From: Escherichia phage vB_VIPECOMC04
DNA: 45,658 bases
Sequence record: PQ423993.1
Direction: 5' to 3' (one strand)
Shown one piece after another: positions 2,379-43,019 of this stretch (positions within the stretch are counted from its first letter, which is position 1; each line of letters begins with the position of its first letter). The notes beneath the pieces were generated by a model. That model was not told the origin of the DNA. It made no database searches and was given only the letters and a program-made list of their open reading frames with translations. Made by a program: the position numbers and the translations under genes.

Positions 2379-2461
2379 CTTCTCTACTCCGTTCTCGTTG
2401 TCGATGAAGTAAATATAATAAGGTCGTAGTTAATAGTCAACTAGTCATTACAGAAAATAGA

Positions 2462-2493
2462 TAAAAAAAATCCCGGCTGGGTCAGGGCCGGGA
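2462..2493 (-). terminator. intrinsic terminator
   Basis: CCCGGC-N9-GCCGGG hairpin; the A8 run at 2462-2470 gives a U8 tract on the minus strand. Confidence 0.6.
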
Positions 2494-2566
2494 TAAAACT
2501 GGAGAGCTGAGGTATGGAGCAGAAGGTGATTTAAGTATCGTCGAATTAGTCTCAGGTGTCAATTGG

Positions 2567-2597
2567 TAAAATAAAACCCGGATTCGCGGTCCGGGTT
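2567..2597 (-). terminator. intrinsic terminator (second of a tandem pair)
   Basis: AACCCGGA-ttcgcgg-TCCGGGTT hairpin with an A-rich run upstream on plus, giving a U-tract on minus. Confidence 0.55.
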
Positions 2598-2725
2598 TCG
2601 GCCATAAGCCCCTGAACCCTACGCAGTCTCCACCGCTTGGGCTGCTGCTTCAGGTTTACCGGGGCTTAGTATGCAGGCACAAGCAGCGTAGGGATAAGTT
2701 TACTAAACGCCTTCATATTCGTCCA

Positions 2726-3211
2726 TCATTTAACAGCCCTCCCAATAGCCTCAGCCTCTTGCCACGGTTTACCGTCGAACAGCGCCAGACGACCCGCAGT
2801 ACGGCGACGCAGACCAAGTAACGGTTTGCCGTTCTGGTTGATGAACAGCGCCAGCTTAGCCCGCAGCGTCGCGATATTACCAGAACGCAGCGCCTTACCC
2901 GTGCCGGTAGTAGCTGCAATCACGCCAGCACCTGCGTTATACACCAGGTCACACACGGCATCGAACTGTGCCTGTGTCAGTGAATGGTGTGCTGCGGCAT
3001 CAACTGCGGCTACGGCTTTAGCCATATCGCGATTCAGTAACAGGAGGCCTTGTCCTGGAGTGATAGTCTTACCTGGGGTTACGTCAGGCCCATAGTGCCC
3101 GTAGCCTATAGTCAGGTACTTCTCGTTCGGTGTCGCGCGGTAGGCGGTCCCGCGGAAATCCTCCCACGCGGCGGTGAAATGCAGTCCATTATCTGAAATA
3201 TTTCGAGACAC
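2726..3211 (-). CDS. endolysin, GH24 (T4/P22-type) lysozyme
   Basis: Motifs AAWEDFRGTAY and TIGYGHYG match the lysozyme family; start placed at GTG 3209-3211, which has GGAGGG 7 nt upstream (the track start at 3262 is TTG). Confidence 0.75.
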   Translation of the reverse strand: MSRNISDNGLHFTAAWEDFRGTAYRATPNEKYLTIGYGHYGPDVTPGKTITPGQGLLLLNRDMAKAVAAVDAAAHHSLTQAQFDAVCDLVYNAGAGVIAATTGTGKALRSGNIATLRAKLALFINQNGKPLLGLRRRTAGRLALFDGKPWQEAEAIGRAVK

Positions 3212-3461
3212 GCTTATGCCCTCCGTATGACAGCCACGCCTGGCGAATCTGGCGCAGCGCAACTAATGTGATTAATGCCTCAGGCAACGTCGGTGACATG
3301 CTGCCCTGTAACAGGTGGATACATCCGGCGGCGCAGACAATAGCAGTCAGGATATATAGCACCCTGCCAAATAACCCGTCGTCAACGCTGGGGTGATACA
3401 CATTAAACAGCGATGTGCCTCCGATTGCCAGCATACCGCCGAACCAGAATAACTCATTCAT
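3189..3461 (-). CDS. putative holin or antiholin (90 aa, two predicted TM segments)
   Basis: ATG at 3459-3461 with GAGGAGG upstream; two hydrophobic helices and a charged C-terminus; directly upstream of the endolysin. Confidence 0.5.
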   Translation of the reverse strand: MNELFWFGGMLAIGGTSLFNVYHPSVDDGLFGRVLYILTAIVCAAGCIHLLQGSMSPTLPEALITLVALRQIRQAWLSYGGHKRVSKYFR

Positions 3462-3762
3462 CTGTGCCTCCTCGACGCGCGATGTATTCTCCGGCGACGA
3501 TACCGGAGAGGCGGGAATAGATAGGCATCCAGAGAATTGCGATGATGAATCCCAGGCCAGCGATTTCACGCTCGCCGGTAATACCGAACCATTGAGCGGC
3601 AAGAGGTGCACCAAATACGGCGCAGGTGAAGCCAGTTGCGATAAAGCAGAAGCCGTCGATATGGCCGGAAATAGCGGACTTATGCTGTCGTAGTCCGATT
3701 ACCCCACCGGCTAGTGCGGCAGCCAGAAGCCAGCCTGTCACTGTTTCAGTAAATTTATCCAA
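3454..3762 (-). CDS. putative holin (membrane protein)
   Basis: ORF track; several hydrophobic segments; first gene of the lysis cassette. Confidence 0.45.
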   Translation of the reverse strand: MDKFTETVTGWLLAAALAGGVIGLRQHKSAISGHIDGFCFIATGFTCAVFGAPLAAQWFGITGEREIAGLGFIIAILWMPIYSRLSGIVAGEYIARRGGTDE

Positions 3763-3821
3763 GATGAATCCTCCAGGTGCGTATTAAGTATGCAGTAACT
3801 GGAGGATAGCACGGTTAGGAA

Positions 3822-4262
3822 TTATCCTAATAGTTGTTTGGTAATAATCTTGCCGCCGGTGTTGGTGTCGAACTTCGATGCAACGGCTACGCCACCATGC
3901 GCCGAATACCCACATTCCATAGCCGCCAGTGCATAAGGAGAGCCGGACCCAACGGCGGCAAAGCCGTCTGCAATTGGAATAACCGAACTAAGGGCACAAT
4001 CCCATGATTTGTAGAACTCCACCTTACACAACGTTTCTATGTCTTTAACCCACACCAGGGCAGAGAAATCAAAATCATAATGCTTAGGCACTAAAATACC
4101 GTCGTCCTTCACTAAAAGGATTCCAACCCCGGCATCACCAACCACCCCGATAACAACAAATTCGTTCTCATATATCTTTGTGTCTGTGTTGTAATAGTTA
4201 CTTCCACTCACAACACGCGTGTCACAAGCCATTGTCTTTCCGTCGAATGCGATAGTAGTCAT
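3822..4262 (-). CDS. HslV-like / proteasome-beta-like Ntn-hydrolase peptidase
   Basis: N-terminal MTTIA (Thr directly after Met) and GSGSPYALAA match the E. coli HslV MTTIV and GSGGPYAQAA signatures as recalled; about 30 aa shorter than HslV. Confidence 0.6.
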   Translation of the reverse strand: MTTIAFDGKTMACDTRVVSGSNYYNTDTKIYENEFVVIGVVGDAGVGILLVKDDGILVPKHYDFDFSALVWVKDIETLCKVEFYKSWDCALSSVIPIADGFAAVGSGSPYALAAMECGYSAHGGVAVASKFDTNTGGKIITKQLLG

Positions 4263-4597
4263 TTATGTCTCCAGATGTATTGTCGTCTCTGCGGTTTCGT
4301 CGGAATATCATCGTATCCCAGCGATTTCCAGTAATTAAATAACCGATTAGCGATTGCTGCGCGTTCCGGTGTTTTGAACTCACCAAGATTCACGGCCTTC
4401 CCGTTCTGGAATCCGCAGGCGCGGACTGCTTTGCGTCTGGCTTGAATCTCAGGGTACAGCGCGTTACGGCGGCGCTTGTATATTCGGGTGTTCGTTCTCG
4501 GTGACAGCGGCGCAAGGCCGCTTCGTTTCAGGATGTCAGTTGCAAGGCTCATATTCCGAGAATCTCGCGGGCCATTTCTTCTGTAACTTTCGAACAA
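4259..4597 (-). CDS. AP2-like DNA-binding domain protein
   Basis: Segment RRKAVRACGFQNGKAVNLGEFKTPERAAIANRLFNYW resembles the AP2 domain found at the C-terminus of the HNH endonucleases in this genome; no HNH motif present. Confidence 0.4.
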   Translation of the reverse strand: MFESYRRNGPRDSRNMSLATDILKRSGLAPLSPRTNTRIYKRRRNALYPEIQARRKAVRACGFQNGKAVNLGEFKTPERAAIANRLFNYWKSLGYDDIPTKPQRRQYIWRHK

Positions 4598-4743
4598 GGT
4601 TCGTATATTACCTGTTCAGCGAATTCACGTAACTTTGCTTCCAGTTTAAGATAAGCGTCGTATTCTACATAATCGCCGTATGCGTACTCAGCCATCTCAG
4701 GCTCTGGCAGGCCCCATTTTTCCACCTCATACCTCTGTACCAT
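4549..4743 (-). CDS. hypothetical protein (tandem paralog A)
   Basis: Likely ATG at 4741-4743, giving N-terminus MVQRY; paralogous to the adjacent gene. Confidence 0.4.
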   Translation of the reverse strand: MVQRYEVEKWGLPEPEMAEYAYGDYVEYDAYLKLEAKLREFAEQVIYEPCSKVTEEMAREILGI

Positions 4744-4946
4744 CACTCCACCCCTTCCAAATGTGTAACTGACCCACAGTTCGCGCACTCTACGTAATCA
4801 GGGAACTGGTCTTTGTATTTCTGTAACTCGGCTTCAACTTCCAACAGCTTGTGGTCAAGATTCTGGTAGTCCTCAAACTTAACCCACGCCCCGTGACGGT
4901 CCCCGAAATGGTTGTCAGACCCATACTTAGAGTATCTCTGTACCAT
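4743..4946 (-). CDS. hypothetical protein (tandem paralog B)
   Basis: Likely ATG at 4944-4946, also giving MVQRY; shares an acidic helical segment with paralog A. Confidence 0.4.
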   Translation of the reverse strand: MVQRYSKYGSDNHFGDRHGAWVKFEDYQNLDHKLLEVEAELQKYKDQFPDYVECANCGSVTHLEGVE

Positions 4947-4948
4947 AA

Positions 4949-5206
4949 TCACTTCTCCTGTTTACCAAGTCGCTTAGGTGAGCAGATAGCGCGTACCTCT
5001 GAATCGTTGGGCTTGTCGCCCTGGAACAGGAAGTGCGCGTTCTCTGCGGCGCGTGCCGCTGACTGGCACGCCTCCATCGAGTAAAACGTTTCTGATGCCG
5101 CCAGTTGCATCTGGCCTGCGGACAATACCCAGATAAACAAGATGCTGGTCATTTGATTGCCCCGCATTTTAGAGCACTGCTGTAAGTCGCTACACCACGG
5201 AACCAA
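4949..5206 (-). CDS. hypothetical protein with possible signal peptide
   Basis: ORF track; internal MTSILFIWVLSAGQMQLAAS looks like a secretion signal; start codon uncertain. Confidence 0.3.
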   Translation of the reverse strand: MVPWCSDLQQCSKMRGNQMTSILFIWVLSAGQMQLAASETFYSMEACQSAARAAENAHFLFQGDKPNDSEVRAICSPKRLGKQEK

Positions 5207-5221
5207 ACGATAGTCATGTTC

Positions 5222-5629
5222 TCACTCCTGTGTGTCAATCTTGTATTCCACTATGTCTGCGTATGTTCTATCCCAAATCCATGACCGCTTTTCTGCTGCT
5301 ACACTGTGTTTCGGCTCCTCCCCGTTGCGATACCGGATAAATACCATAGTCCCATCCGGCACAGGTTGTCGTGCACCATAATGCGGCCTCCAGGCGTTGT
5401 ACTGAGTATCTTCCTTACGGCAACCAGATTGCTCTGCTGCTATATAAGCGCCTACGTCACCTGTAGCTGTAGCCAACGCCTTACGCAACTCCTTAATATG
5501 TTCTGACGCATCACGTAACTGATTCTTGAGTGACAACACCTCGTGCGCCAGGTCTTCGCACTGGTTGCCATTTACCTGCTGCCGTAACTGGCCAATCAGG
5601 TACTCGAATACCTCGTTTTTGTTACTCAT
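5222..5629 (-). CDS. hypothetical protein
   Basis: ORF track, start moved to ATG 5627-5629 (MSNKNEVFEY); coiled-coil-like N-terminus. Confidence 0.4.
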   Translation of the reverse strand: MSNKNEVFEYLIGQLRQQVNGNQCEDLAHEVLSLKNQLRDASEHIKELRKALATATGDVGAYIAAEQSGCRKEDTQYNAWRPHYGARQPVPDGTMVFIRYRNGEEPKHSVAAEKRSWIWDRTYADIVEYKIDTQE

Positions 5630-5754
5630 CCTCAACCCCCATTTTTATCGCTTTAGTGTCACCGTCGCGCACCGAAGTGCTACCCATTATTTCGTAAGCA
5701 TCTACCAGTTCGCCTAAAGTAAATTCACTGTACATCTTCTGTCTCTCCTCTCGT

Positions 5755-6027
5755 TTACTCAACAGCGCCGGTTATCGCTATAAGCCCGGTATTACCACGG
5801 CGGCGATACTTACGAATCACAGTTTTAAGTTCGTCGTTACTACTCTGATGCCCGAAAGTGATCGGCAACTCGTCTCCGCCTGACATCCCGAACTCAGTGT
5901 CTGTCGGTTTGTTCCGCCACCCCTGAATAAATCCGTTGCGGTCGCGTGTAACATATCGGTAGTTATTCGGGAGGGGTAACTCAAGCCCCTCAAAATCAAC
6001 GGTCACGGTGTAACTGTTAAAATTCAT
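5755..6027 (-). CDS. hypothetical protein
   Basis: ORF track, start moved to ATG 6025-6027 (MNFNSY). Confidence 0.4.
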   Translation of the reverse strand: MNFNSYTVTVDFEGLELPLPNNYRYVTRDRNGFIQGWRNKPTDTEFGMSGGDELPITFGHQSSNDELKTVIRKYRRRGNTGLIAITGAVE

Positions 6028-6197
6028 AGTCAATTACCCCGAACTCATTTATGATTTGGGCCTTGTAGAAGTTGCCGTTTGATGCCAGGTGATACGCCTG
6101 CGCCATAGTCATCTCGCGATAAGTTGCTGCGCTGTTTTCGAATTCCATAACCATCAAAGTAACCATCTTCCGTCTCTCCTCTCGTTTGCGTAAATGA

Positions 6198-6226
6198 ATA
6201 GTAGCCTATTCTATCTTACTATGCAA
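6198..6226 (-). promoter_or_regulatory. sigma70-like promoter (class B) with operator palindrome
   Basis: Minus-strand reading TTGCAT-17-TACTAT; the palindrome GAATAGT-ag-CCTATTC (6196-6211) overlaps the -10; lies upstream of the gene starting at 6166. Confidence 0.45.
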
Positions 6227-6300
6227 GTAAATTTTATTGGTGCTTGTATTGTTGCATCTCCTGCAATAGTCGCTTCTATTGTTGCGTTTGGTGAAATAGA

Positions 6301-6340
6301 ACAAAAATGAGAAAAATGATACGCTGCTGTGTAGCAGCGT
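6301..6340 (-). terminator. intrinsic terminator
   Basis: ACGCTGCT-gtgt-AGCAGCGT hairpin; A-rich 6301-6320 gives a U-rich tract on minus. Confidence 0.5.
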
Positions 6341-6676
6341 AAGTCACTAAGCCAAATAGTAACCTATTGACCTGTTACACCACCTGTTACACCAGCACGA
6401 GCCAGCACACCAGCTTTCCACGCCCGCCACGCGAGACGCGTCTTAACGTTCAGGTACTCTTTCTTCGAACCCTTGTTAACCGGCAGACCCTCTACGACAG
6501 CCCACCGTTCGAATGCCTGTCTCATACCAGAACCTCGCATTCATCCCGATACACGAACAATAACGACCCTTTGTACTCAATCATAAAACCATAATGGTTG
6601 CTGCTGAACGCCAGGAAAACATCACCTACCGAGATACCGAAATCTATAAGCCTGCGGTCAGTTATTCGTATTCTCA

Positions 6677-6970
6677 TTAACGGCAACCTCCCTCAGAGTC
6701 GTCAGCACGAGCATCATGATTCGATGCCGTTCTCATAAACAATTTGCCCTTGCGCTGTAATAAGTCCATCGTTACCGCACCTGCGCCTGACTTATTAGGG
6801 CGACGCAGTATGCTAAAGTTCCATACCCTGGCCTTTGTTACGTCTCTGGCGTTACACACCCACAGAGCACCATTTTCTCTTAGTTCCAGTAAATCAGAAA
6901 TGCTGAAATTATTTACCGGGATAAACCCGCTAATGAACTGGAGTTCGCATTGATGTAATTCTTCCATCAC
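6677..6970 (-). CDS. hypothetical protein
   Basis: ORF track. Confidence 0.35.
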   Translation of the reverse strand: MMEELHQCELQFISGFIPVNNFSISDLLELRENGALWVCNARDVTKARVWNFSILRRPNKSGAGAVTMDLLQRKGKLFMRTASNHDARADDSEGGCR

Positions 6971-7158
6971 TTCGCCCCTTTGAATTTAAAATTGTTGCCG
7001 ATGAGTTTTATTTCGTACTCTCGGTAATACGCCGCGTAATCTAACCCGTGCCCCCTGAGTAAGCTAACGACATAAGAACTTCGGTACACTGTCGATTTCT
7101 TTTCAATAATACCTAAGCTACCGTACATCGTTTTCACCAACTGACCCTTCTTAAACAT
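6967..7158 (-). CDS. hypothetical protein (first gene of the leftward transcription unit)
   Basis: ATG at 7156-7158 with GGAGTGAAGG upstream; product MFKKGQLVKT... Confidence 0.45.
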   Translation of the reverse strand: MFKKGQLVKTMYGSLGIIEKKSTVYRSSYVVSLLRGHGLDYAAYYREYEIKLIGNNFKFKGAK

Positions 7159-7192
7159 AACCTTCACTCCTCAGTCTCGTTTCGATAAGTGA

Positions 7193-7221
7193 ATAGTATC
7201 CTATTATGTTGGGGTGTGCAA
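7193..7221 (-). promoter_or_regulatory. sigma70-like promoter (class B) with operator palindrome
   Basis: Minus-strand reading TTGCAC-17-TACTAT; spacer accccaacataatagga is identical to the plus-strand copy at 29936-29952; palindrome GAATAGT-at-CCTATTA at 7191-7206. Confidence 0.55.
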
Positions 7222-7276
7222 GAGAATAGTTACGTTGCCGTTGTTGTGCCTTTATTCTTATTACTTGGTAACTAAA

Positions 7277-7315
7277 GGGCAGGCTTAAGGCCTGCCCGGT
7301 AAGGGTTACATTTTT
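7277..7315. terminator. strong hairpin with T-run, candidate insulating terminator
   Basis: GGGCAGGC-ttaag-GCCTGCCC stem at 7277-7297 flanked by GTAAC/GTTAC, then TTTTT at 7311-7315; lies in the ORF-free divergent control region. Confidence 0.4.
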
Positions 7316-7579
7316 ACGGTTGCGAATCATTCGGCACTTTAAGAAAATCAGATACTTAAGAGATATGCTGTCGATGTGAATAGAGCTTGCCCAGGGCAAC
7401 CGGAGATACTAAGGAAAGTAAAGTTACGATAATTCTTGTGTTCAGTAAACTGCCGCCTAACACTTCGCGTTGGGCGCTCGTTTTCGGCGGGTTTTACAAG
7501 GTGAACAGGAATCAAAGTAACTAAGATATAGAAGCACCTTAAACGAAGATTTTCATAATGTCAATAGGTGTGATTATGT

Positions 7580-7608
7580 TTGATTTCCCATTATTCGCAA
7601 TGTATACT
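7580..7608 (+). promoter_or_regulatory. candidate early promoter
   Basis: TTGATT-17-TATACT about 30 nt upstream of the first plus-strand gene (ATG 7641). Confidence 0.35.
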
Positions 7609-7640
7609 TGATTTCGTTAACTGATAATGAGGGTTTGAGA

Positions 7641-7811
7641 ATGACACAGAATGAGGTAGCTGAGCGTATCGGGGTTACTCGTCGCACACTGAATAACTGG
7701 TTAAAGAGCGGGAAGTTCCCGGATTGTTGTATTCGCATTATGGGTCGCCGTCAGCCTGGTACGTTTGACCCGGAGAAAGTGGAAGCGTGGATTAAGGAGA
7801 ACGTGAAATGA
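7641..7811 (+). CDS. small HTH DNA-binding protein (AlpA/Xis-like)
   Basis: ATG 7641 with GAGGG upstream; VAERIGVTRRTLNNWLKSGKFP is an HTH signature. Confidence 0.5.
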   Translation: MTQNEVAERIGVTRRTLNNWLKSGKFPDCCIRIMGRRQPGTFDPEKVEAWIKENVK

Positions 7812-8041
7812 CCGAGTTCCAGTCACGCGTATTTACGGCAGTCGTTTCGTTAACACGCAAAAAAGGTTCGTGCAGCGTTATCGACTTGCGCCGTAGCTAT
7901 TTTAAGTACTATAGTTCCGCCATTATTGAAGGGTCGTTGAAGGTGCTGGTTAAATCTGGTGTCGTGAAAAATGTTGGCGGGAGATATAGTGCCGTTGCAG
8001 AAGTTCGCGGAATGACCGCTACTTTAGAAGACCTGGAATAA
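7808..8041 (+). CDS. hypothetical protein with C-terminal EDLE tail
   Basis: ORF track; ends ...TATLEDLE, the same tail as the primase/helicase and exonuclease. Confidence 0.45.
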   Translation: MTEFQSRVFTAVVSLTRKKGSCSVIDLRRSYFKYYSSAIIEGSLKVLVKSGVVKNVGGRYSAVAEVRGMTATLEDLE

Positions 8042-8099
8042 AAGAAAGCCCCGACGCGGTGAACGCCGAGGCAAAATTACTTGCTGAAGGAAATACAAC

Positions 8100-10340
8100 A
8101 TGACCGATGTAATTTTATCCTACTCGTGGTCTCGTCGCAACGCGCGGGCAGAGAAAAAGGATATAAACGTCAGAACCACACACACGGCAACACTGGACGA
8201 CCTGAAAGAGTTAATACAGCCGCTTGATGCCGTTCGTGGCGGAATTAACCCTAAGACCGCACCAGGCTACATCACCGCCGCGTGTGACTCAACGCACAGC
8301 ACCGTAAAAGACCCGGAAACAGGTGACTTTAAGCAAGCGCGCAAAGGTTTCTTTTATCGCTGTGACGCGTCTGTAATCAAATCGTCACTTGCGTATCTGG
8401 ACTTCGACAGTGCAACGCCGGAAGAGTATCGGGAAGCGGTGCGCCTGGTTAAGCGCAGCCGCCCAGCGATGTGCCTCTACACTACGGCATCACATACCGA
8501 TGAGTCGCCGCGCTTTCGCGTCGTCATGCCGCTGGCCCACCCGGTTGAAGGGGGTGACATCATCCGTGTTCGGCATGGATTGCTGGAGCACTTCTTCAAA
8601 GGCATGGGTGCGGACCGTAGCGGGTTCACTCTGTCTCAGCCGATGTACCTGCCGCCGGTTGGCTCTACTGTTATCTGGTCGCGCCGTAACGACCTGATTG
8701 ACCCCGACGAGTTACTGGAAGGTATCCCCGCCGTTGATGTTAGCAGCGCATCGGATTACCAGATACCAGAAGAACTGCGCACCGCGTTTACAGCTGCGTT
8801 CGAAGCCCTGGCGTTCGAATACGGCGGCATCATGACCCCACGCGGCCTTAAGATGCCAGCTACACCAGAACACGCAGAGAACTACAGCGACCCGACGCCG
8901 CGCCCAGACGACTTCCTGTTGTGCTTCCCGCGCGCCGGGTACGAAGCACCGAACGTAACCATGATTCACGACACCGACATTACTGCAACAGAAGGCATGT
9001 CACCGAAAGAGGTGTGGAAGTATGCGTGTGACGCTACCGGGCTGCCGTTCAGTGAAGTGGCTGAGGCCATCGGATGGGGTGCGCGGGAGTCCGTTTCATG
9101 CAGCCTGGACGACCTGGAAGATGACGAGGACTCAGAGGGTGACGAGTTACCAGAACCGGTAAAGGCTGATTTCGTCGTAGAAGGGTACATGCCGTCGGAT
9201 TGCATATGGGATATTGTTGGGGAATCCGGTACGTATAAATCATTCTATACGCTTGGGATGATGTACCTGAGCGCCGCCGGATACCGGTTTGCGGGAGCCG
9301 ATACCCAGCGTTGCCACCATTTCTATATTGACGGTGAGGGTGGCGCGACCACACGCACACGTATCGATGCGCTCGCGGCTAAATATGGTGAGGAAGGTAA
9401 AGATTATGTACATGTCATCGACATGGGTGAAGTAGGCAAACTGAAAAGCCTGATCAAGCTAATGCGCGAAACTGCTGGTGACGAGCCAATTGGCATGGTT
9501 GCGTTCGACACACTCAACCAGACACTGGCACTGACGATTGATAAGTTCGACGAGAACAGTTCATCAACGGCAATCGGCATGGGTAAAGTTATCGCCATCC
9601 TGAAAGAAGTGCGTGACGCTACTAAAGCCGCGGTAGGCGTTGTTCACCACACACCGAAGGGTGGAAAGAAAGCCCGTGGTAGCGGGGCGCTGTATGCCGG
9701 TGTTGATGTGGAGCTTACAATTGAGCGCGCAACCGACCGTCAGATAAACGTATACCACTCGAAATTTAAGCACGGGCCCCAACAGAAAACGGTTGGCATG
9801 GTGCTGGAGTCTGTACAGTTCCGTGAAGCCCCGCCGCCGAAAGAGTACCGTGCAGTTGAGTTCCTGGGTAACACAGAGGAATACGGCGCAATCGTAAACC
9901 TGGACTTGCCGGAACCACACAAAGCGCTTGTGCTGATGCCGTGGGGCTTCGAGCCGTTCAAAACTGACGAGGAGAAAGAGCGGGAAGAAGGGCTGACAAA
10001 GGAAGGTAAAGAAAACGTAAAGAATGCTGTAAAACGTGGGAAGGATGAAGGGCGTAAGGAATCAATACTCGCCGCGCTGGAAGACCTGCAACAGTCCGAC
10101 GACACAGGCCGCGGTTTTACCCAACGGCAGATAGTGGCGAACTCAGGCGACCACGCTATCACAAACCACCATCTTGAGAAGATGCTGAAAGAAGGTGAGT
10201 TGATGCTTGGGTGTGATGCCAACGGTGAAGTTATACCGGGCACATACCGGATACCTGAAAAGATGGGTGACAGATTAAGACCGAAGACAATATACGAACC
10301 GAATGGAATGCTGGTGGTGACAGAAGAGGATTTGGAATAG
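8100..10340 (+). CDS. primase-polymerase (AEP-like) fused to a RepA/DnaB-like AAA ATPase
   Basis: N-terminal AEP-like motifs (LDFD, ASHTDES); central Walker A GESGTYKS and Walker-B-like MVAFD; ends ...VVTEEDLE. Confidence 0.7.
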   Translation: MTDVILSYSWSRRNARAEKKDINVRTTHTATLDDLKELIQPLDAVRGGINPKTAPGYITAACDSTHSTVKDPETGDFKQARKGFFYRCDASVIKSSLAYLDFDSATPEEYREAVRLVKRSRPAMCLYTTASHTDESPRFRVVMPLAHPVEGGDIIRVRHGLLEHFFKGMGADRSGFTLSQPMYLPPVGSTVIWSRRNDLIDPDELLEGIPAVDVSSASDYQIPEELRTAFTAAFEALAFEYGGIMTPRGLKMPATPEHAENYSDPTPRPDDFLLCFPRAGYEAPNVTMIHDTDITATEGMSPKEVWKYACDATGLPFSEVAEAIGWGARESVSCSLDDLEDDEDSEGDELPEPVKADFVVEGYMPSDCIWDIVGESGTYKSFYTLGMMYLSAAGYRFAGADTQRCHHFYIDGEGGATTRTRIDALAAKYGEEGKDYVHVIDMGEVGKLKSLIKLMRETAGDEPIGMVAFDTLNQTLALTIDKFDENSSSTAIGMGKVIAILKEVRDATKAAVGVVHHTPKGGKKARGSGALYAGVDVELTIERATDRQINVYHSKFKHGPQQKTVGMVLESVQFREAPPPKEYRAVEFLGNTEEYGAIVNLDLPEPHKALVLMPWGFEPFKTDEEKEREEGLTKEGKENVKNAVKRGKDEGRKESILAALEDLQQSDDTGRGFTQRQIVANSGDHAITNHHLEKMLKEGELMLGCDANGEVIPGTYRIPEKMGDRLRPKTIYEPNGMLVVTEEDLE

Positions 10341-35583: not shown

Positions 35584-35925
35584 TTAAGACACAGTTGCTA
35601 CAGTGCTGCTGGAGATAATATTACCATACGCATCGTGAACAACCACTTTATACGTACCGGAATCAGCGGTAGTGGTTGACGCTTTAGTATAGGTAGCCTC
35701 GGTAGCCCCGGAGATGGCGTTGTTATTCTTATACCACTGGTGAGAATACGGCTCCAGACCGCCAGTTACGGTTACGGTCAGTGTCATGGTTTCGCCCGCG
35801 GTAACGGAGGTAGTAGCCGCCAGCGCGGGTGAGAAAGACGCAGGAGAAATAGTCGCCATGTCAATCTTAGCACCAGGGGCGTCAGCGGAGACGACGGTGA
35901 TGCGTCGCTTCAATACGTCTGCCAT
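35584..35925 (-). CDS. Ig-like domain protein (likely head decoration)
   Basis: YSHQWYKNNNAISGATEATYT...SGTYKVVV is an Ig-like pattern; directly downstream of the capsid gene. Confidence 0.5.
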   Translation of the reverse strand: MADVLKRRITVVSADAPGAKIDMATISPASFSPALAATTSVTAGETMTLTVTVTGGLEPYSHQWYKNNNAISGATEATYTKASTTTADSGTYKVVVHDAYGNIISSSTVATVS

Positions 35926-35986
35926 TTAGGAATCCTCTTAGTAAATGAAAAGAGGGACCGAAGTCCCTCTCGATTATAGCTTAACC

Positions 35987-37036
35987 TTAAGCACCGACAC
36001 CAGTTACCAGGAAGGCAATCGGTACATGCTTACGTTCAACCACACGGTTCCAGTTGGAGGCATTCGCCAGGTCCTGCCAGGAAGCGGAGCGTGCTACCGT
36101 CTCGGTGCCGTTGCCGGTGATTACTGCGCTGGTGAAGCTGTATCCCAATGGGTGCAGCAACCAGGTCTTACGGGTCCACAGGGTTTCAACGCCGCCACCG
36201 TTGCCGCGGGACTCTTCACGTTCATATGCCAGCGGATTGGTCGGGTTACCTTCGCCGTAACCGATAGCGCCGTTGCCGAAGATGATGGAGATGAACTTAC
36301 GGCTCGGGCCGGTGCCAACTACGGTCATGCTGTCATCAACAATCACGCGGTAACCCTGGTAGGTGGCGAACAGGGTGTCGTTGTCAGCGTTTTTGATGAA
36401 GTCGATAAGCTGCTGCTTACGTGCCTGCGCATAAACGAAGCTGTGCATCGCGATAGCACCCAGCACTTCTCCGCCGTTGCCTATCAGCGCATCACCCATA
36501 GTCTGGGTGGCGTCGATGAACGCACCTGCGTCGAAGCCCAGAGTAGCAGACACGTCTACAACCATGTCATTCCGCTCGTGGTATGCGTCGGTAGCGGCTA
36601 CGTTGTCATTGTACAGACCGAGCGCGGTAGCGATCAGACGGCGTTGCGCCTGGCGCTGCCAGAAGTTATCCAGACGGGACGCTACTGATTGCAGCGGGTT
36701 CTGGCTGGTCAGTTCGACAGTCAGGTCCGCCTGACCAAAACCTTCGTTCAGGTACGCAACGCGCGCCATCATCTCACCGGTCTGCACGTTACGCGGGGTA
36801 GCGATGTCCTGGTATACGTCGTTCGAGTAGTTCGGCTCGATGGAAGTGTCAATCGCTTTCCAGAAAGGAATATTAGCGACGTTGGACGGGCCGCGGGCAA
36901 TCTCGGCAGCGTATGGGGTCGGGGTCAGAATACCAGACTGGAAGAACGCGGTTTTTTCTACCGGGTCCTCGGTCATATAAGACGCCAGGACCGGGATGTT
37001 GCCAGTTACGATATCGCCGATAGTGGTAATTGCCAT
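35987..37036 (-). CDS. major capsid protein
   Basis: 349 aa; immediately after the scaffold gene; RBS-coupled. Confidence 0.7.
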   Translation of the reverse strand: MAITTIGDIVTGNIPVLASYMTEDPVEKTAFFQSGILTPTPYAAEIARGPSNVANIPFWKAIDTSIEPNYSNDVYQDIATPRNVQTGEMMARVAYLNEGFGQADLTVELTSQNPLQSVASRLDNFWQRQAQRRLIATALGLYNDNVAATDAYHERNDMVVDVSATLGFDAGAFIDATQTMGDALIGNGGEVLGAIAMHSFVYAQARKQQLIDFIKNADNDTLFATYQGYRVIVDDSMTVVGTGPSRKFISIIFGNGAIGYGEGNPTNPLAYEREESRGNGGGVETLWTRKTWLLHPLGYSFTSAVITGNGTETVARSASWQDLANASNWNRVVERKHVPIAFLVTGVGA

Positions 37037-37038
37037 TA

Positions 37039-37740
37039 TTATTTCCTCAGGGCTTTAAGTTGCCGTTCAAATTCGGCAGGGTTCGATTTATACAGGGCTA
37101 AACGCTCTGCTTCACTCATGTCTTTAAACGCTGGTGCGGCCCCGCCGCCTTTGCTACCGGAAGCCCCGCCGCCGGAAGCTGCATTTGCTTTAATCAAATG
37201 CGAAAACGCTTTGTGTTCACGCAGGTATTTGCGGAACTGTTCCGGGTCAGTTGTGATTACGTTACCGTCTGCGCCGACAAACTTAGTAACCACGTCATCG
37301 CCTTCGAACTCAGTCTTAACGAACGGAGCGAGAATGTCTACCGCTTCCGGGGTAATAAAGTCGCCCGCGAAAGAGCCTAACACCGCTTTACGTTCGCTGC
37401 CGAGGATGCGCTCTGCCATTCTGGAGATGCGACCATCTTTCTCGGCTAACACCGGGTCATACTGGCTACGAATCGTCTTTTCGAACTCATCCATCTTACC
37501 AGCGGCTTTTAACGCCTCCTGGTGTGCGCGCTGCCGTTCTTCTTCAGCCTCTTTTGCTTTACGAGCGGCTTCTTTCTTCTCCGCCAGCAATGCTTCCTGA
37601 TTAGCCTTAAGCCCGGCGACTTCTTTTTCAATCAGCGCCTGAACTTCTTCAGCAGTGAACATTTTCGGCGCGTCACCGCCGCCAGATTTATCTTCTGCCC
37701 CAGCTTCTTCCTGGAACGGATAGCGTAAAAAACGATTCAT
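37039..37740 (-). CDS. scaffolding protein
   Basis: Start moved to ATG 37738-37740; Ala/Glu/Lys-rich coiled coil; directly upstream of the capsid gene. Confidence 0.55.
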   Translation of the reverse strand: MNRFLRYPFQEEAGAEDKSGGGDAPKMFTAEEVQALIEKEVAGLKANQEALLAEKKEAARKAKEAEEERQRAHQEALKAAGKMDEFEKTIRSQYDPVLAEKDGRISRMAERILGSERKAVLGSFAGDFITPEAVDILAPFVKTEFEGDDVVTKFVGADGNVITTDPEQFRKYLREHKAFSHLIKANAASGGGASGSKGGGAAPAFKDMSEAERLALYKSNPAEFERQLKALRK

Positions 37741-37822
37741 AGTCAGTATGTCCCCTGGACGTTGGAACCCGGGCCACCCGGATTTACATGTCAAGAATAA
37801 ATTATTCCAACATGCAAGGCAA

Positions 37823-38062
37823 CTATTCCAGAATATTCCTCACGTAATCCTGCAACATGAACACTTTCAGTCTCAGTTGCCGTGCGCATTCGGCGTTCTG
37901 AACGTCGATAGCTAAATCCTCGTCCGCGTCGCTACTTGGCGGTGCCAGTTTGCACGGTGGTTGCATCATCGTCGTATCCGGGGATGGAATTGGCGTTTGC
38001 AACGGCGCGGGACTTGAGCACCCGTAGCACCCTATAACTAAGAGCAATATTGGCAGTCGCAT
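37823..38062 (-). CDS. Rz1-like outer-membrane lipoprotein (o-spanin candidate)
   Basis: Signal peptide with lipobox-like LLVIGC, then proline-rich SPAPLQTPIPSP. Confidence 0.45.
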   Translation of the reverse strand: MRLPILLLVIGCYGCSSPAPLQTPIPSPDTTMMQPPCKLAPPSSDADEDLAIDVQNAECARQLRLKVFMLQDYVRNILE

Positions 38063-38607
38063 TTGAAAAAATCTCCATGTAGCTTCTTGGCAGCTTGCAC
38101 GTAGGCCATGTGTGCGTCGACGGGGGAGTCGAACTGACCGAGATATTTGGTCTTGTTGCGGATTCTTATGTCCGCACGGAATCTGCCGTTCGGGAACCTA
38201 GAAACCCCCTTGAACCCTGTACTATTAGCGGACGTGAGACCAACGTTACGGCTGTTCTCTTGGCTAGTAGCAAGCCTGAGATTTTCTATACGATTGTTGA
38301 GTGGGTTCCCGTCAATGTGGTCTATCTCATATGGTGTCGGAATCGGCCCATTGAAAAGTTCCCATATAAGCCGGTGCGCTTGAAACGCCTTACCCATCCA
38401 TCTAACCTCTATCGTCTGTCGCCGTTTTGCGCCTTTCGGCGTGGTCAGGCACCCTGCCGGGGTTCCTGTTTTATTAGCGAGCTTACTGCTACGCCAGTAA
38501 AGAACCCCATCGTCGTAGTAGAAAGTATCATTCAGTATAGTCATATCCTGGTATCCCGTTTGCATTGCTGATAGCGTCGTATTTGACTCTAACTCTATCA
38601 GCGTCAA
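38038..38607 (-). CDS. HNH homing endonuclease with AP2 domain
   Basis: HRLIWELFNGPIPTPYEIDHIDGNPLNNRIENLR plus AP2-like segment; overlaps both spanin candidates; true start probably internal. Confidence 0.75.
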   Translation of the reverse strand: MTLIELESNTTLSAMQTGYQDMTILNDTFYYDDGVLYWRSSKLANKTGTPAGCLTTPKGAKRRQTIEVRWMGKAFQAHRLIWELFNGPIPTPYEIDHIDGNPLNNRIENLRLATSQENSRNVGLTSANSTGFKGVSRFPNGRFRADIRIRNKTKYLGQFDSPVDAHMAYVQAAKKLHGDFFKCDCQYCS

Positions 38608-38887
38608 ACTTGCAAGATACTTTATTGGGCCTACTTATGTACTTAACGACTTCACGGGTAATCACCTCTGATTTCGTCTTGCCTTCGTTGTCGGCGGCTG
38701 CGGCCTTTGATTCATCCTGCTGCTGCCGTTGTGTTTTCTTCGCTAACTCAGCCTGCGCTTTCTGCTGTTGCTGCGAAACGAGATTCGCCCGGCCTTCATT
38801 CCAGCCGCTGCGGTACTGATAGATGCCGTGTGCGTAAGCCAGGATGATGAAACATGCTCCTGCTACGACAGTTGCTTTAAGATTCAT
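38528..38887 (-). CDS. Rz-like inner-membrane spanin candidate
   Basis: N-terminal TM anchor MNLKATVVAGACFIILAYAHGIY, then a Q/A/K-rich coiled coil. Confidence 0.45.
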   Translation of the reverse strand: MNLKATVVAGACFIILAYAHGIYQYRSGWNEGRANLVSQQQQKAQAELAKKTQRQQQDESKAAAADNEGKTKSEVITREVVKYISRPNKVSCKFDADRVRVKYDAISNANGIPGYDYTE

Positions 38888-39138
38888 GTTTCCCCTTTCT
38901 CGATAAGTAAAGCCCCGCCTTAAAGCGGGGCGCTAGTCCTTATCATTTAAACATAGAAACGGCGTAATCTCAGTAAACCAGTTACTTTTTACACAAGCAA
39001 TAGAGTATGGCCCTTCCGAACGCGTCAGCGTAACTACACTCAGGACTTACGTCCCGCTCCGTTACCTGCCCGCGCCGCGGTCGCTTGTTCATACTTCACA
39101 AGCTCAGGTGGAGCTTAGCACATTTTTAGTGAAAAGTC

Positions 39139-39154
39139 AACTATTCGAATAGTT
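39139..39154. promoter_or_regulatory. perfect 16-bp palindrome built from the operator half-site
   Basis: AACTATTCGAATAGTT; same GAATAGT/ACTATTC half-sites as the promoter operators but in everted order; abuts a TTGACT hexamer on the minus strand. Confidence 0.4.
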
Positions 39155-39206
39155 TATTCCAACGTTTACAATTGAGTGGAATAACTGGAATACGTAAATA
39201 AATAGT

Positions 39207-39235
39207 TTGCGCGCACCAACATAATAGGGTACTAT
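39207..39235 (+). promoter_or_regulatory. sigma70-like promoter (class B) with operator palindrome
   Basis: TTGCGC-17-TACTAT; palindrome TAATAGG-gt-ACTATTC at 39222-39237; 28 nt upstream of the mini-clamp ATG. Confidence 0.55.
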
Positions 39236-39262
39236 TCGGTTAACTTAAACAGGAGATGAGAA

Positions 39263-39784
39263 ATGGTTACTACAGTAATTACTTTCCCTGCGTATGTAGG
39301 GGCGAAAATATGCAGGGCTAAAAATGATGTTCGCTACTATTTGAACGCTTTTTACATAGACCCTGAAGGATTGATAGTGTCTACGGACGGTCATAGATTG
39401 TTCTGCGACAATGTGAAGACCAACGTTGAGAAAGGGACTCTCATAGACATCAAAGGGAGAGAGCCTTCTAAATTTAACTACGCGGAGGTAAACCACGACA
39501 ACGGCAGTGTATCTTTCTATGACGATAATCGTGCGCTTATATGTACACTTCCGGTAGATGTTGTAGAAGGAAACTTTCCTGACTGGAGACGCGTGGTGCA
39601 CATCACACCGGGTGTTGTCGATAGTATAGGGTTCACCCTGCGCTATTTGGCAGACGCGTACAAGATTTCTAAGGCATACAAAAATGAAATTGCTCGTTTC
39701 GATTTCCAGGACCAAACCAGAGGATGTAAAATACTATTTTCAAACACGGCCTTTATGGTGTTAATGCCTGCGCGATTTAAATAA
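39263..39784 (+). CDS. truncated beta sliding clamp homolog (DnaN domain II plus C-terminal segment)
   Basis: DVRYYLN, TDGHRL, GNFPDWRRV, IGFTLRYLAD and VLMPARF align with E. coli DnaN DVRYYLN, TDGHRL, GRFPDYRRV, IGFNVSYVLD and VVMPMRL as recalled; AGGAG RBS; own promoter and terminator. Confidence 0.8.
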   Translation: MVTTVITFPAYVGAKICRAKNDVRYYLNAFYIDPEGLIVSTDGHRLFCDNVKTNVEKGTLIDIKGREPSKFNYAEVNHDNGSVSFYDDNRALICTLPVDVVEGNFPDWRRVVHITPGVVDSIGFTLRYLADAYKISKAYKNEIARFDFQDQTRGCKILFSNTAFMVLMPARFK

Positions 39785-39788
39785 AACT

Positions 39789-39816
39789 AAGGCCCCTTAC
39801 GGGGCCTTTTATCATT
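39789..39816. terminator. bidirectional intrinsic terminator
   Basis: AAGGCCCC-ttac-GGGGCCTT with TTTTATCATT downstream and an A-run upstream. Confidence 0.65.
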
Positions 39817-40273
39817 CTGGCTTAGTGACCTTCGCCGCTTTGCTTACGGCCTCTGCACCATCGGCATCGGTAACTTTAATGAAGTATTCGCCCGCCGCAT
39901 TAACCGTCAGAGACAGCGCCTCTTCAGGGGCATTTACCACTTCCTTCCCGTCTTTGTACCAGGTCAGTACATACGGCGCTTTACCCGCCTTAACTTCGAC
40001 GGTGATGGTGGCGCTACCGTCGACCAGCTCGGTGTCTTTCGGCTGCACAGAGAAATACACATCACCAGCGTCCGCCAGATACGGAATCTCATAAAGCATA
40101 CCCGCCGCGGGCAGCGCAATACCGGTTTTATCTGCAAACGGCATATCGTCTACCGGCGTACCTAGTACACTTTCATCTTCAATAAATACCACATTCTCAC
40201 CAGAACCGGATACACGGGCGTACTGGACTACACGACGCGACGGCACATCAGTTACTTTGAAAAAGCCCATCAT
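39812..40273 (-). CDS. Ig-like domain protein
   Basis: YVLTWYKDGKEVVNAPEEALSLTVNAAGEYFIKVTDADG is an Ig-like pattern; follows the head morphogenesis gene. Confidence 0.4.
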   Translation of the reverse strand: MMGFFKVTDVPSRRVVQYARVSGSGENVVFIEDESVLGTPVDDMPFADKTGIALPAAGMLYEIPYLADAGDVYFSVQPKDTELVDGSATITVEVKAGKAPYVLTWYKDGKEVVNAPEEALSLTVNAAGEYFIKVTDADGAEAVSKAAKVTKPE

Positions 40274-41349
40274 TATTCCCCTTTCAGATAATCAGCAACA
40301 CGTTTATCGAGTTCCGCCATCTGCTTAAGCGTGAGCGGATTCCCGAAACCATCTACAGATATTACGCGAAACTCTTCCGGCGATATACCGCTGTTACGGA
40401 AAATCTTACCGCGGGTCGGCCCGAGTGCTTCATCCACGAACCATGCCGGTTGTTGTTTAAGGAACTCGTAATAGGTGGTGTCTGCGCTTACCTGAGTACC
40501 TCCGTCCGCACCCTTAGCTGCTCGTTTCGCGCCTTTATCGAGGAAGTCGAACTCGGAACTGATTACCGGAGCCGTGGTACTTCTGCACCCAAAATGTGCT
40601 GGCGGCATCGGCCCTTTACCAATTTCCCACGTCATTCCGTCTCTGGCCCTGCAAATCGTACTGGTGCGGCTGTCCAGCGTCGACACCCACTCGTATTTCT
40701 CGATGATGTCGTCGTTCCGGCGGTACGTCTCGTTACGGGCCTCGTTGGATACATGAGACAGCGCGGTGCGGATTACAGTAGCCGCATTACGTTCTGAAAT
40801 GTCCGCCAAACCACCAGCACCAACAACATTCTTAACAATCTGCCGTGTTGTCTTACCCTGAACAAAGCCCATCTTAACGCCTGTTACAAGGCGCGATACT
40901 TCTGTTCCACCCCAGCCAGACATCAGCTTGGTGAAATCAACAGGCTTGTCGCTCAATGATAATGGCTGAAACTCAGCCGCAGCCCATACCTGCTCGGCGG
41001 TAGGCGTGACAAATTCCGCGTCTATGTTGGCGGTCAGTGTCTTTACGTTCCACTCAGCCTCATACGCCGCCAGTTCCTTAATGTCTTCTGTCAGCTTTGT
41101 TTGCCAGTCGCCGGTAAGTCCGGTTAGTGCTTCTTCTAGGTCACGTAACAGTTTATTCAGTCGGGCGGTGCTGCGACCGTCGTCGCCGAATAACAGCACC
41201 TGCCGTTTGATTTCGTCTCGCATTTCCTGAAGAAACGGCGCGAGGTCTTTCACTTCGCCGGATGCGGTACGTTGCAACCATATCTGGTGACTGATTAGGG
41301 ATGTAAGTAAGCTCATAGATAAACCCTGTGGCGCTAAAGTTAATAGCAT
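40273..41349 (-). CDS. head morphogenesis protein (Mu gpF / SPP1 gp7-like)
   Basis: WVSTLDSRTSTICRARDGMTW...PPAHFGCRSTT matches the Mu-F signature; directly downstream of the portal gene. Confidence 0.7.
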   Translation of the reverse strand: MLLTLAPQGLSMSLLTSLISHQIWLQRTASGEVKDLAPFLQEMRDEIKRQVLLFGDDGRSTARLNKLLRDLEEALTGLTGDWQTKLTEDIKELAAYEAEWNVKTLTANIDAEFVTPTAEQVWAAAEFQPLSLSDKPVDFTKLMSGWGGTEVSRLVTGVKMGFVQGKTTRQIVKNVVGAGGLADISERNAATVIRTALSHVSNEARNETYRRNDDIIEKYEWVSTLDSRTSTICRARDGMTWEIGKGPMPPAHFGCRSTTAPVISSEFDFLDKGAKRAAKGADGGTQVSADTTYYEFLKQQPAWFVDEALGPTRGKIFRNSGISPEEFRVISVDGFGNPLTLKQMAELDKRVADYLKGE

Positions 41350-41382
41350 ATAAGAAAGCCCCTTTCGGGGCTATATGTGAAC

Positions 41383-42864
41383 TTACTGCTGAGTGACATC
41401 TTGTTGCTGCGCCGACTGCGGAATCTCTCCTGCCACCTGAGTAACAGCACCTAACGGCAGAGGTGCGTCCTCAATAGCGTTCTGAATATCCTCGTCGGTC
41501 CAGTCAGTCACCCCTGCTTTACGCAACGCGGCGTAGTAAGCGGTCGCTGGCAGCAGACCGGTATTAATGTCCGCCATCCACTGAGCGCGGTCCTGAGCGG
41601 TCATCGGTTGCAGGAAGAACTCCATGTTAAGTTTGAACTCAATTTCAGTACCGTCACTAAGCCCAAGCATACCCGCAACCCATTTCAGCGCATCGGTATA
41701 CGCCATGCTTACATTACGCGCGATTGTCGCCATAACGGACGTGTCAGCGCCGCGTTGCAGGCGGGCGGATTCAGCGGTAATTTGCTGCGTCGGGGTAATA
41801 AGCTGCGCACCAATCTGGATAGCCTGATTCTCTTTATCCAGCATATTCTGTTTGGCGAGGTTGTTCTCTCCGGCCTGAACAAGAAACGCATTGCCGCCGG
41901 AGCCGATGTTATGGCCTGAACGCGACCCCATGCGCACGCCGTGTGGGTTGGCTTCTTTCCACTGTTCCATGCTCATGTTCTCACCGGGGGCGATGAACAG
42001 AGTGGGCTGGCCTACAACGAAGCTGGATTCCTCATTGTCTGCGCTGTTGCGGAAATGTCCGATATTAAGCTCAGCTAACGGTAGCAAAGGTGCATCGTCA
42101 ATGGTGGCATCGTTGTTGCTCGCCCCAATGAACGTGAACGGGATTTTGCCGCGTAACTGTTCGCCGAGTTCCGGGAAGATTTCGATTACTTCGCCCTGAG
42201 CGCCACCCTCGGCGTCGAAACGGTAAATGCGCTGGCGGTAGCGACCATCAATCAGGTCAAGGACGCGGTACTGTTCACCGAACTTAGTTTCGAACTCTGC
42301 TCCAGGTTCTGAGTATTCCCACACTTCACGCAACACGACCATCGTCACACGGTTAACAGAACCGACGCGGGTCAGTCGCCAGTTGATGATGTTCTCTGCG
42401 GTGTAGAATGCGATGACTGGGTTTAATAACCCTGCGTTCTGTTCAGCTGCCGTTGCGGCAGCAGTCTCCGGGGCGTCAACCAGCAACCCACCACGTCCTA
42501 TCGAGTTAATCTCCATTAACGTATCCTGCGCGTGCTGCCACAGCCCGACGCCTGAACCGTCAGCGTTGTGCAACAGGTATTCCAGTTCATGCGGGATAAT
42601 TTGCTCAGGGTCTTTACGCATCACCGACCCCGTCATCCCCGCCAGGGTACGTTTTGTGAAATTGTAGCAGATAGCGCCTTTCTCGTATTCTTCCTGTCGC
42701 TGTGCTGCGTAGGTCGGGTCAGGCTCGTTCTTCCCGACGTTGCGCAGGTAGCGAATAAGGTCGCCCTCCAGCGCGTGGCGTACCTTCTGCCATTTATCGA
42801 AGTGGTGCAGCCATTCCCGGTGTTTTGTCTTAACACCCTGATTCTGACCGTTCATAGTTAACAT
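41383..42864 (-). CDS. portal protein
   Basis: 493 aa; position between terL and the morphogenesis gene. Confidence 0.65.
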   Translation of the reverse strand: MLTMNGQNQGVKTKHREWLHHFDKWQKVRHALEGDLIRYLRNVGKNEPDPTYAAQRQEEYEKGAICYNFTKRTLAGMTGSVMRKDPEQIIPHELEYLLHNADGSGVGLWQHAQDTLMEINSIGRGGLLVDAPETAAATAAEQNAGLLNPVIAFYTAENIINWRLTRVGSVNRVTMVVLREVWEYSEPGAEFETKFGEQYRVLDLIDGRYRQRIYRFDAEGGAQGEVIEIFPELGEQLRGKIPFTFIGASNNDATIDDAPLLPLAELNIGHFRNSADNEESSFVVGQPTLFIAPGENMSMEQWKEANPHGVRMGSRSGHNIGSGGNAFLVQAGENNLAKQNMLDKENQAIQIGAQLITPTQQITAESARLQRGADTSVMATIARNVSMAYTDALKWVAGMLGLSDGTEIEFKLNMEFFLQPMTAQDRAQWMADINTGLLPATAYYAALRKAGVTDWTDEDIQNAIEDAPLPLGAVTQVAGEIPQSAQQQDVTQQ

Positions 42865-43019
42865 AGATATAGACCCTCGGGTATGGGTGTCAAAAGCCTA
42901 ATAAAAATTAGGTTGCAAGTCACCAGAAACTCGCTACTGCGAGTTTTACTTGCACCGGGCTGGCGGTCAATATATCTTATCATTAAGCAGATAAAAATGA
43001 ATTGTTGGAGGGGGTACGC

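Follow-up and report, generated by a model that had tools for sequence, protein, structure and literature searches.

The open reading frame (ORF) at positions 3822..4262 on the minus strand of the sequence record PQ423993.1 from Escherichia phage vB_VIPECOMC04 raises the question of why a phage should carry a protein that resembles the bacterial peptidase HslV, and whether such a protein would have to work together with HslU. The stretch of DNA that was analyzed, referred to below as the window, has 45,658 nucleotides (nt) and belongs to a Kagunavirus-like siphophage of the subfamily Guernseyvirinae, with ~90% nucleotide identity to Escherichia phage vB_VIPECOTPH05A. The ORF consists of 146 codons, starts with ATG and encodes MTTIAFDGKTMACDTRVV...AVGSGSPYALAAMECG...FDTNTGGKIITKQLLG. 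A sequence-only reading of this region pointed out its MTTIA start, in which Thr directly follows Met, the presence of a GSGSPYALAA motif, and a length about 30 residues below that of bacterial HslV, and it proposed an HslV-like threonine peptidase that either pairs with the HslU of the host or acts alone. The three features are present exactly as described. HslV of E. coli K-12 has 176 residues, begins with (fMet)-TTIVS and contains GSGGPYAQAA, to which the phage motif is identical at 8/10 positions. The results presented here assign the window protein to the PPH family, the only primarily viral branch of the proteasome superfamily, and are best explained by an HslU-independent threonine hydrolase that is conditionally useful to the phage, in particular conditions or hosts. 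The probability of this explanation is estimated at about 70%.

The PPH family is one of 22 groups of proteasome homologs that were newly described in 2021, and was named then from sequence analysis (Fuchs, Alva and Lupas, Bioinformatics 2021; PMC8665760). According to this description, PPH proteins have no propeptide, and helix H2 is missing in PPH and its relative RPC only (PPH "lacks the second helix (H2)"). The S12/H5 elements are absent from all of Group I, and for PPH neither a co-occurring AAA+ interactor nor an informative gene context was found (PMC8665760). On these defining features the window protein can be placed in PPH. Its 146 residues are close to the ~140 residues of the published members, and its model ends with strand 139-143, with none of the C-terminal extension or additional domain that sets RPC apart. 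Secondary structure assignment by DSSP gives a single six-residue helix (46-51) between strands 36-42 and 66-72 and no H2, and the model contains neither S12 nor H5. The protein starts with MTT, and the residues of its catalytic triad and oxyanion hole (T2, D14, K29 and G42, the equivalents of Thr1, Asp17, Lys33 and Gly47) are invariant or at least 90% conserved. As with the published family, the origin is a tailed phage or prophage and there is no AAA+ partner; 442 PPH loci on viral contigs were confirmed. The protein falls into Group I, where its nearest neighbors are BPH (Betaproteobacteria proteasome homolog) and HslV. The Guernseyvirinae clade differs from the PPH consensus in having Lys in place of Trp at position 52, and from other PPH in that its gene precedes the lysis genes. 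Nothing found contradicts membership in the family.

The finding as such is not new: PPH has had its name since 2021, and an identical protein is deposited in UniRef under a pipeline label ("Peptidase HslV family protein", Escherichia phage vB_VIPECOMC04). Its relatives are labeled "peptidase HslV family", "ATP-dependent protease", "nucleophile aminohydrolase" or "hypothetical protein", and these labels derive from PHROG 1040, not from experiment. Little is added here beyond the 2021 description, namely that part of the HslU pocket appears to be lost together with H2, that the accessory status of the gene can be quantified and its deletion scar recognized, and that the family is larger. In 2021 it comprised 219 nr70 sequences (PMC8665760). 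An exhaustive search of 1.84 billion representatives, clustered at 50% identity, returned 1,236 clusters at E ≤1e-3, a list whose weak tail was not sorted by family, and PPH therefore appears to be several-fold larger than reported.

The match of the window protein to PHROG 1040 (E 5.5e-35), the existence of hundreds of orthologs and a median ratio of nonsynonymous to synonymous substitution rates (dN/dS) of 0.14 establish that the ORF is a real gene and not a chance ORF. The ratio was calculated by the Nei-Gojobori method for 75 pairs among 18 Guernseyvirinae orthologs and ranges from 0.03 to 0.27. In the same orthologs 54 of the 146 residues are invariant, every catalytic position included. 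This pattern of substitution indicates that PPH is maintained as an enzyme under purifying selection. Conservation extends to distant members of the family. The best 150 representatives have a median length of 147 residues, and 136 of them start with Met-Thr, which confirms that the N-terminal Thr is conserved in homologs. Among 133 representatives with only ~35% identity to the window protein, four residues (K29, G105, G107 and A111) do not vary at all, and conservation reaches at least 90% at M1, T2, T3, D14, G42, D132 and G136; D14 joins the invariant residues in a second alignment (127 sequences).

The model calculated by AlphaFold2 from the 127-sequence alignment has a predicted local distance difference test (pLDDT) score of 94.1 and a predicted template modeling (pTM) score of 0.89. 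The fold consists of a β-sandwich core with flanking helices and can be superimposed on solved structures. In a Foldseek comparison with the PDB, the top matches all belong to the proteasome family (BPH with an E-value of 8.6e-8, several HslV structures and 20S beta5), with template modeling (TM) scores of 0.7-0.75 at sequence identities of at most 23%. The profile search and structure prediction that the sequence-only reading called for thus yield a confidently predicted N-terminal nucleophile (Ntn) hydrolase fold of the proteasome type. When the family profile is aligned with E. coli HslV by hhalign (97% probability), T2/D14/K29/G42/S106 correspond to T1/D17/K33/G48/S124. In the profile search, the C-terminal F-D-x-x-T-G-G sequence aligns with "RDSYSGG" / "RDAYSGG" of 20S beta8 and beta5. 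Judged from these alignments, Thr1, Asp14, Lys29, the oxyanion Gly42, the GSG motif and Asp132/Thr135 make up a complete proteasome-type active site, and the window protein is therefore most likely a catalytically active threonine hydrolase.

The earlier description of the protein as an HslV-like threonine peptidase holds for the fold and the N-terminal Thr, but not for strict membership in HslV. The window protein scores 11.6 bits against the NCBIfam HslV equivalog TIGR03692, whose cut-off is 157.75, and 10.5 against NF003964, whose cut-off is 137. Its score with the bacterial 20S beta model is 18.5 bits (cut-off 191.9) and with the Pfam Proteasome family PF00227 16.2 bits, below the gathering score of 22.4, yet 61/133 family representatives match PF00227 at E ≤0.01; the protein is therefore a member of the superfamily, not of the PF00227 family. 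The family profile matches 20S beta5/beta8 (1.2e-12), HslV (1.4e-11) and BPH (6e-11) about equally well. For Gram-negative HslV chains the best-scoring profile stretch stops at the GSG motif, and HslV residues ~69-85 fall into an alignment gap in PPH. The missing ~30 residues are located mainly in the H1/H2 region, where a six-residue helix takes the place of the two long helices of HslV and 20S beta subunits. As the scores lie far below the curated HslV cut-offs and H2 is absent, the window protein is not HslV proper, and both profile and structure place it about equally far from HslV, BPH and 20S beta.

Some features are shared with each of these relatives and others are not. The N-terminal Thr nucleophile and the Asp17/Lys33/Ser124 active site are common to PPH and HslV (ClpQ), whereas the phage protein is 30 residues shorter, has a truncated H1 and no H2, is not accompanied by an adjoining hslU, and carries an FDxxTGG region that aligns to the 'RDxxSGG' of 20S beta subunits. 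HslV is a dodecamer of two hexameric rings and BPH is composed of two heptameric rings; PPH is known here as a monomer model. BPH (PDB 5ovs, 5ovt) is a bacterial chromosomal protein of ~185-200 residues in which H2 is retained and the pore loop is long and acidic. Unlike 20S beta subunits, PPH has no propeptide, no alpha-subunit partner, no H2 and no H5.

The region that is missing from PPH is of consequence for the interaction with HslU. In the HslUV complex HslU's C-terminal tails enter pockets between HslV subunits, formed by Phe54 and Phe57 of H1, Ala79 and Lys80 of H2, and Gln114 (PMC6429459 and work cited therein). In PPH, the residues aligned with Phe54 and Phe57 are I48 and V51, within an H1 truncated to six residues, and the segment with Ala79 and Lys80 has no counterpart. 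According to the model, the loss of H2 would remove one wall of the pocket into which the HslU tail docks. The gene context points in the same direction. No HslU homolog was found in the window, either by tblastn with E. coli HslU (best E 4.8) or by phmmer against ORFs of at least 80 residues, in agreement with the sequence-only reading; the complete annotation of the closest relative contains no AAA+ unfoldase, and there is no AAA+ gene among the recurrent neighbors in 39 PPH lineages. A relative of PPH is also present in Microbacterium phage LeeroyJenkins, which infects an actinobacterium, and the Actinobacteria are a phylum without HslV in a published table (PMC8665760). The loss of part of the pocket, the absence of HslU from the window, the absence of AAA+ linkage, the sub-threshold HslV scores and the homolog in a phage of an actinobacterium together argue that the window protein does not depend on HslU and probably has no ATPase dedicated to it.

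It could nevertheless be imagined that the phage protein takes the place of host HslV or combines with it, and that the HslU (ClpY) of the host powers it, so that ATP-dependent proteolysis would be redirected. The N-terminus resembles the (M)TTIV of E. coli HslV, the GSGSPYALAA motif is very similar to its HslV equivalent, HslV is among the best structural matches, and the E. coli host has hslVU. This pairing, one of the two alternatives in the sequence-only reading, is nevertheless distinctly unlikely. It would have to be accommodated by a protein with a six-residue H1 and without the Ala79/Lys80 helix, which scores ~11 bits against curated HslV cut-offs of 137-158 and is no nearer to HslV than to BPH or 20S beta by either profile or structure; the alignment with Gram-negative HslV has its best stretch end at GSG; a close relative is carried by a phage whose host phylum is listed without HslV; and linkage to an AAA+ gene was seen in none of the 39 lineages. 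Of the two alternatives, action of the protein on its own is the better supported. A phage JSS1 protein, JSS1_004, which came up in a 2025 paper mentioning HslV, is unrelated: it is a kinase/shutoff protein, and the paper concerns the transcription of host hslVU only.

By combining these observations it is possible to outline how an HslU-independent PPH enzyme might function. The methionine aminopeptidase of the host would remove Met1, so that Thr2 becomes the N-terminal nucleophile; removal of Met is permitted when Thr is the second residue, and E. coli HslV provides a precedent. As in E. coli HslV, no propeptide cleavage would be required. The exposed Thr1 would then act as the nucleophile together with Lys29 and Asp14, as in proteasomes, and the enzyme would do so in the absence of HslU. 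Assembly into rings is probable because PPH retains H3 and H4, the helices that mediate the contacts between the two beta rings in 20S proteasomes. The substrates might be peptides, unfolded proteins, or one specific protein of the phage or the host.

Whatever its substrate may be, PPH belongs to the accessory genes and is not essential. At identities of at least 80%, counterparts of the phage's capsid protein occur in 461 phage records; ~298 records have PPH at identities of at least 60%, so that the gene is present in ~65% of Guernseyvirinae. It occurs in ~71% of the Salmonella phages and in about one third of the Escherichia/Kagunavirus phages, figures that are approximate as they were derived from the first word of the organism name. 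At the level of at least 80% identity, the adjoining holin is present in ~111 records and PPH in ~28, and at least 80% of the region 3300-4900 is covered in only 24 of 133 records. In phage Bas74 of the BASEL collection the holin comes immediately after the upstream gene, and the PPH ORF is cleanly gone. The blastn homology with Bas74 ends at window position 4261 and starts again at 3832; what is left of the PPH ORF in Bas74 is its final ~11 nt including the stop codon, 'TTATTAGGATAA' (positions 2424-2430 of locus L091 from Bas74). Because this 3' remnant persists in phages that lack PPH, it is best understood as the trace of an ancestral gene, which suggests that among Kagunaviruses PPH was lost by repeated deletion rather than gained by insertion. 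Many Kagunaviruses without PPH keep the holin and the endolysin. The existence of such phages implies that lysis, virion assembly and growth on laboratory E. coli all proceed without PPH. A small gene that is well conserved and yet dispensable is likely to have a role in phage-host conflict or in the remodeling of host physiology. The Kagunavirus/Jerseyvirus group represents a natural experiment in this respect, as near-isogenic phages with and without PPH are available on tractable E. coli and Salmonella hosts, some of them in the BASEL collection.

The dispensability of PPH argues against a part in the lysis cassette and against a role as prohead protease, and fits a conditionally useful accessory function. 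The PPH gene lies 59 nt 5' of two holin genes and an endolysin gene on the same (minus) strand, and the order PPH-holin-holin-endolysin is kept across Guernseyvirinae, down to 65% protein identity. PPH might therefore be a part of the lysis cassette that times lysis by processing a holin, antiholin, endolysin or spanin. This is very improbable, since about one third of the subfamily (Bas74 and K1G-type phages among them) has lost exactly the PPH ORF from a holin-holin-endolysin block that is otherwise nearly identical, and since PPH outside Guernseyvirinae adjoins terminase, portal, helicase or small accessory genes and not lysis genes. Hardly any credence can be given to the proposal that PPH is a catalytically dead scaffold or decoy, or else the missing prohead maturation protease. 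A dead enzyme is difficult to reconcile with a full catalytic set that is invariant and under purifying selection. The prohead protease could be suspected because the closest relative has a scaffolding protein and no annotated head protease, but phages without PPH still form virions, and a Microbacterium phage carries a PPH homolog in addition to a separate capsid maturation protease. Head assembly with a scaffold only needs no protease, phage P22 being the textbook case.

More weight can be given to explanations in which PPH has a single target. It might be a monomer or small oligomer that acts as a sequence-specific processing enzyme or transpeptidase (compare connectase) on one phage or host protein, such as a defense or stress factor. 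The proteasome superfamily includes a monomeric and highly specific ligase, the loss of the H1/H2 layer could alter assembly, a patchy accessory distribution is typical of host-interaction and counter-defense genes, and some PPH genes share accessory regions with Sequestin-, Tad2-like- and Rap1a-type genes. This explanation is considered unlikely, H3 and H4 being retained. A bolder version, which is also on the unlikely side and somewhat less so, is a self-sufficient, ATP-independent phage 'mini-proteasome' or a connectase-like protease/ligase that destroys or modifies one host protein, for example a defense or stress-response factor. A specific host target would explain both the strong purifying selection in most Salmonella Jerseyviruses and the repeated deletion in most E. 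coli Kagunaviruses. If this were true, PPH would represent the first viral enzyme of the proteasome family for which a target is defined, and the lack of the H1/H2 layer might give it a quaternary structure without precedent.

The preferred explanation, an HslU-independent threonine hydrolase of conditional use, has several points weighing against it. The evidence for the absence of H2 comes from a predicted monomer and a profile alignment. I48 and V51 are still hydrophobic, so that part of the HslU pocket could survive, and it is conceivable that HslU, or some other unfoldase, binds elsewhere on the protein. A proteasome-like mechanism with sequestered active sites presupposes rings and would be mistaken if PPH failed to form them. 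The assignment to PPH is based on the published defining features; the reference sequence of the family, WP_042125023.1 (KEGG OC.1434257), is not among the NCBI-sourced homologs and cluster members that were looked up. Literature searches of open-access texts found no experimental study of any PPH or of another phage homolog of the proteasome or HslV.

The positions of the PPH coding sequence, its putative catalytic codons and the adjacent signals are collected in Table 1. The start codon of PPH overlaps the TGA stop codon of the upstream ORF 4259..4597 (minus strand) in an ATGA junction, and this overlap suggests that the translation of PPH may be coupled to that of the upstream ORF. A scan of positions 2400-8100 for promoters and terminators gave no excess over shuffled sequence (7 found with 8.1 expected, and 8 with 5.8).

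Table 1. Features of the PPH locus in window coordinates.
Feature	Position	Strand	Basis
PPH coding sequence, 146 residues, predicted proteasome-type N-terminal-nucleophile hydrolase	3822..4262	-	
GGAG Shine-Dalgarno sequence, 6 nt 5' of the PPH ATG	4269..4272	-	Direct sequence reading
Thr2 codon, predicted catalytic nucleophile (Thr1 once the initiator Met is gone)	4257..4259	-	At least 90% conserved in 133 family members; aligns to HslV Thr1
Asp14 codon, putative equivalent of Asp17 of the proteasome/HslV triad	4221..4223	-	At least 90% conserved in the 133-sequence alignment, invariant in the second; aligns to HslV Asp17
Lys29 codon, putative equivalent of Lys33 of the proteasome/HslV triad	4176..4178	-	Invariant in both family alignments; aligns to HslV Lys33
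Gly105-Ser106-Gly107 codons, GSG motif, putative equivalent of HslV Gly-Ser124-Gly and proteasome Ser129	3942..3950	-	G105/G107 invariant, S106 at least 90% conserved; aligned to the GSG of HslV and 20S beta5
Asp132 codon in F-D-x-x-T-G-G, putative equivalent of the proteasome beta Asp166/Ser169/Gly170 region	3867..3869	-	At least 90% conserved
428-bp segment that some Kagunaviruses have and others lack, comprising the PPH ORF without its final ~11 nt	3833..4260	-	blastn against phage Bas74

The upstream ORF codes for 112 residues when the longest ORF is taken, and is assigned to phrog_9632 in relatives. The C-terminal half of its product (GFQNGKAVNLGEFKTPERAAIANRLF) resembles, by eye, an AP2/HNH-associated DNA-binding motif. 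The ORF gave no match in NCBIfam or PADLOC, and PPH gave none in PADLOC. The upstream ORF is kept in Bas74, which lacks PPH, and is therefore not an obligate partner.

The wider neighborhood of PPH was surveyed at 78 full-length loci from IMG/VR, which represent 39 lineages at 60% identity. The most frequent neighbors are the portal gene (8/39, ~2.1 kb downstream) and the large terminase gene (7/39, mostly 0-1 kb downstream), followed by the gene of an SPP1 gp7-like head protein (5/39) and those of the small terminase, helicase and endolysin (4/39 each). The recurrent genes are all packaging or structural genes, and the clustered neighbors in the 39 lineages include no conserved partner gene or candidate substrate; as the neighbors were taken as longest ORFs with no gene model, small partners could be missed. 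At some loci PPH is found among small accessory genes, for example in a lambdoid nin-like region. PPH tends to be situated at the junction of early and late gene blocks, with no dedicated partner, in agreement with the published description (PMC8665760).

Two unrelated contigs that carry PPH, L006 (3073-3288 and 11119-11454) and L008 (9793-10259), have Sequestin-, Rap1a- and Tad2-like genes in the same accessory regions. These families have been linked to counter-defense, and with two loci only the association is anecdotal. In the closest relative of the window (PQ429079.1, 11000-45476; equivalent to window positions ~35900-42900), head scaffolding and SPP1 gp7-like head morphogenesis proteins are annotated and a prohead protease is not. 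Its Rz-like spanin gene lies far from the holin/endolysin block, within the head-gene region. In the close relatives NTEC3 and SCS92, a homing endonuclease gene lies within the 2.2-kb region that spans PPH and the lysis genes, which suggests that the neighborhood of PPH is a hotspot for the insertion of mobile elements.

Several viral proteins extend the range of PPH-like structures. The protein of phage LeeroyJenkins, gp16 (MN096358.1; positions 4635-5165 of locus L003), has 176 residues, starts with MTTIA and matches the PPH profile with 99.4% probability (hhalign, E 4.5e-21). It has an insertion of ~30 residues exactly at the position of the H2 missing from PPH, and may be an H2-retaining intermediate between PPH and AAH. 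As of 2021, the related AAH group was not known from any phage specific to Actinobacteria (PMC8665760). In BFVD, 42 viral structure clusters, nearly all of them unnamed, have the PPH fold at E ≤0.001. The matches to the model include A0A1W6DWU9, as well as A0A5B9NBU4 and related Aeromonas phage proteins. A viral protein of 263 residues in BFVD is 60% identical to PPH over 131 columns and may be a fusion or a mis-called join to a neighboring gene. Several viral proteins of 275-279 residues, one of them from Aeromonas phage 4L372XY, combine a PPH-like core with a long extension and may be RPC-like.
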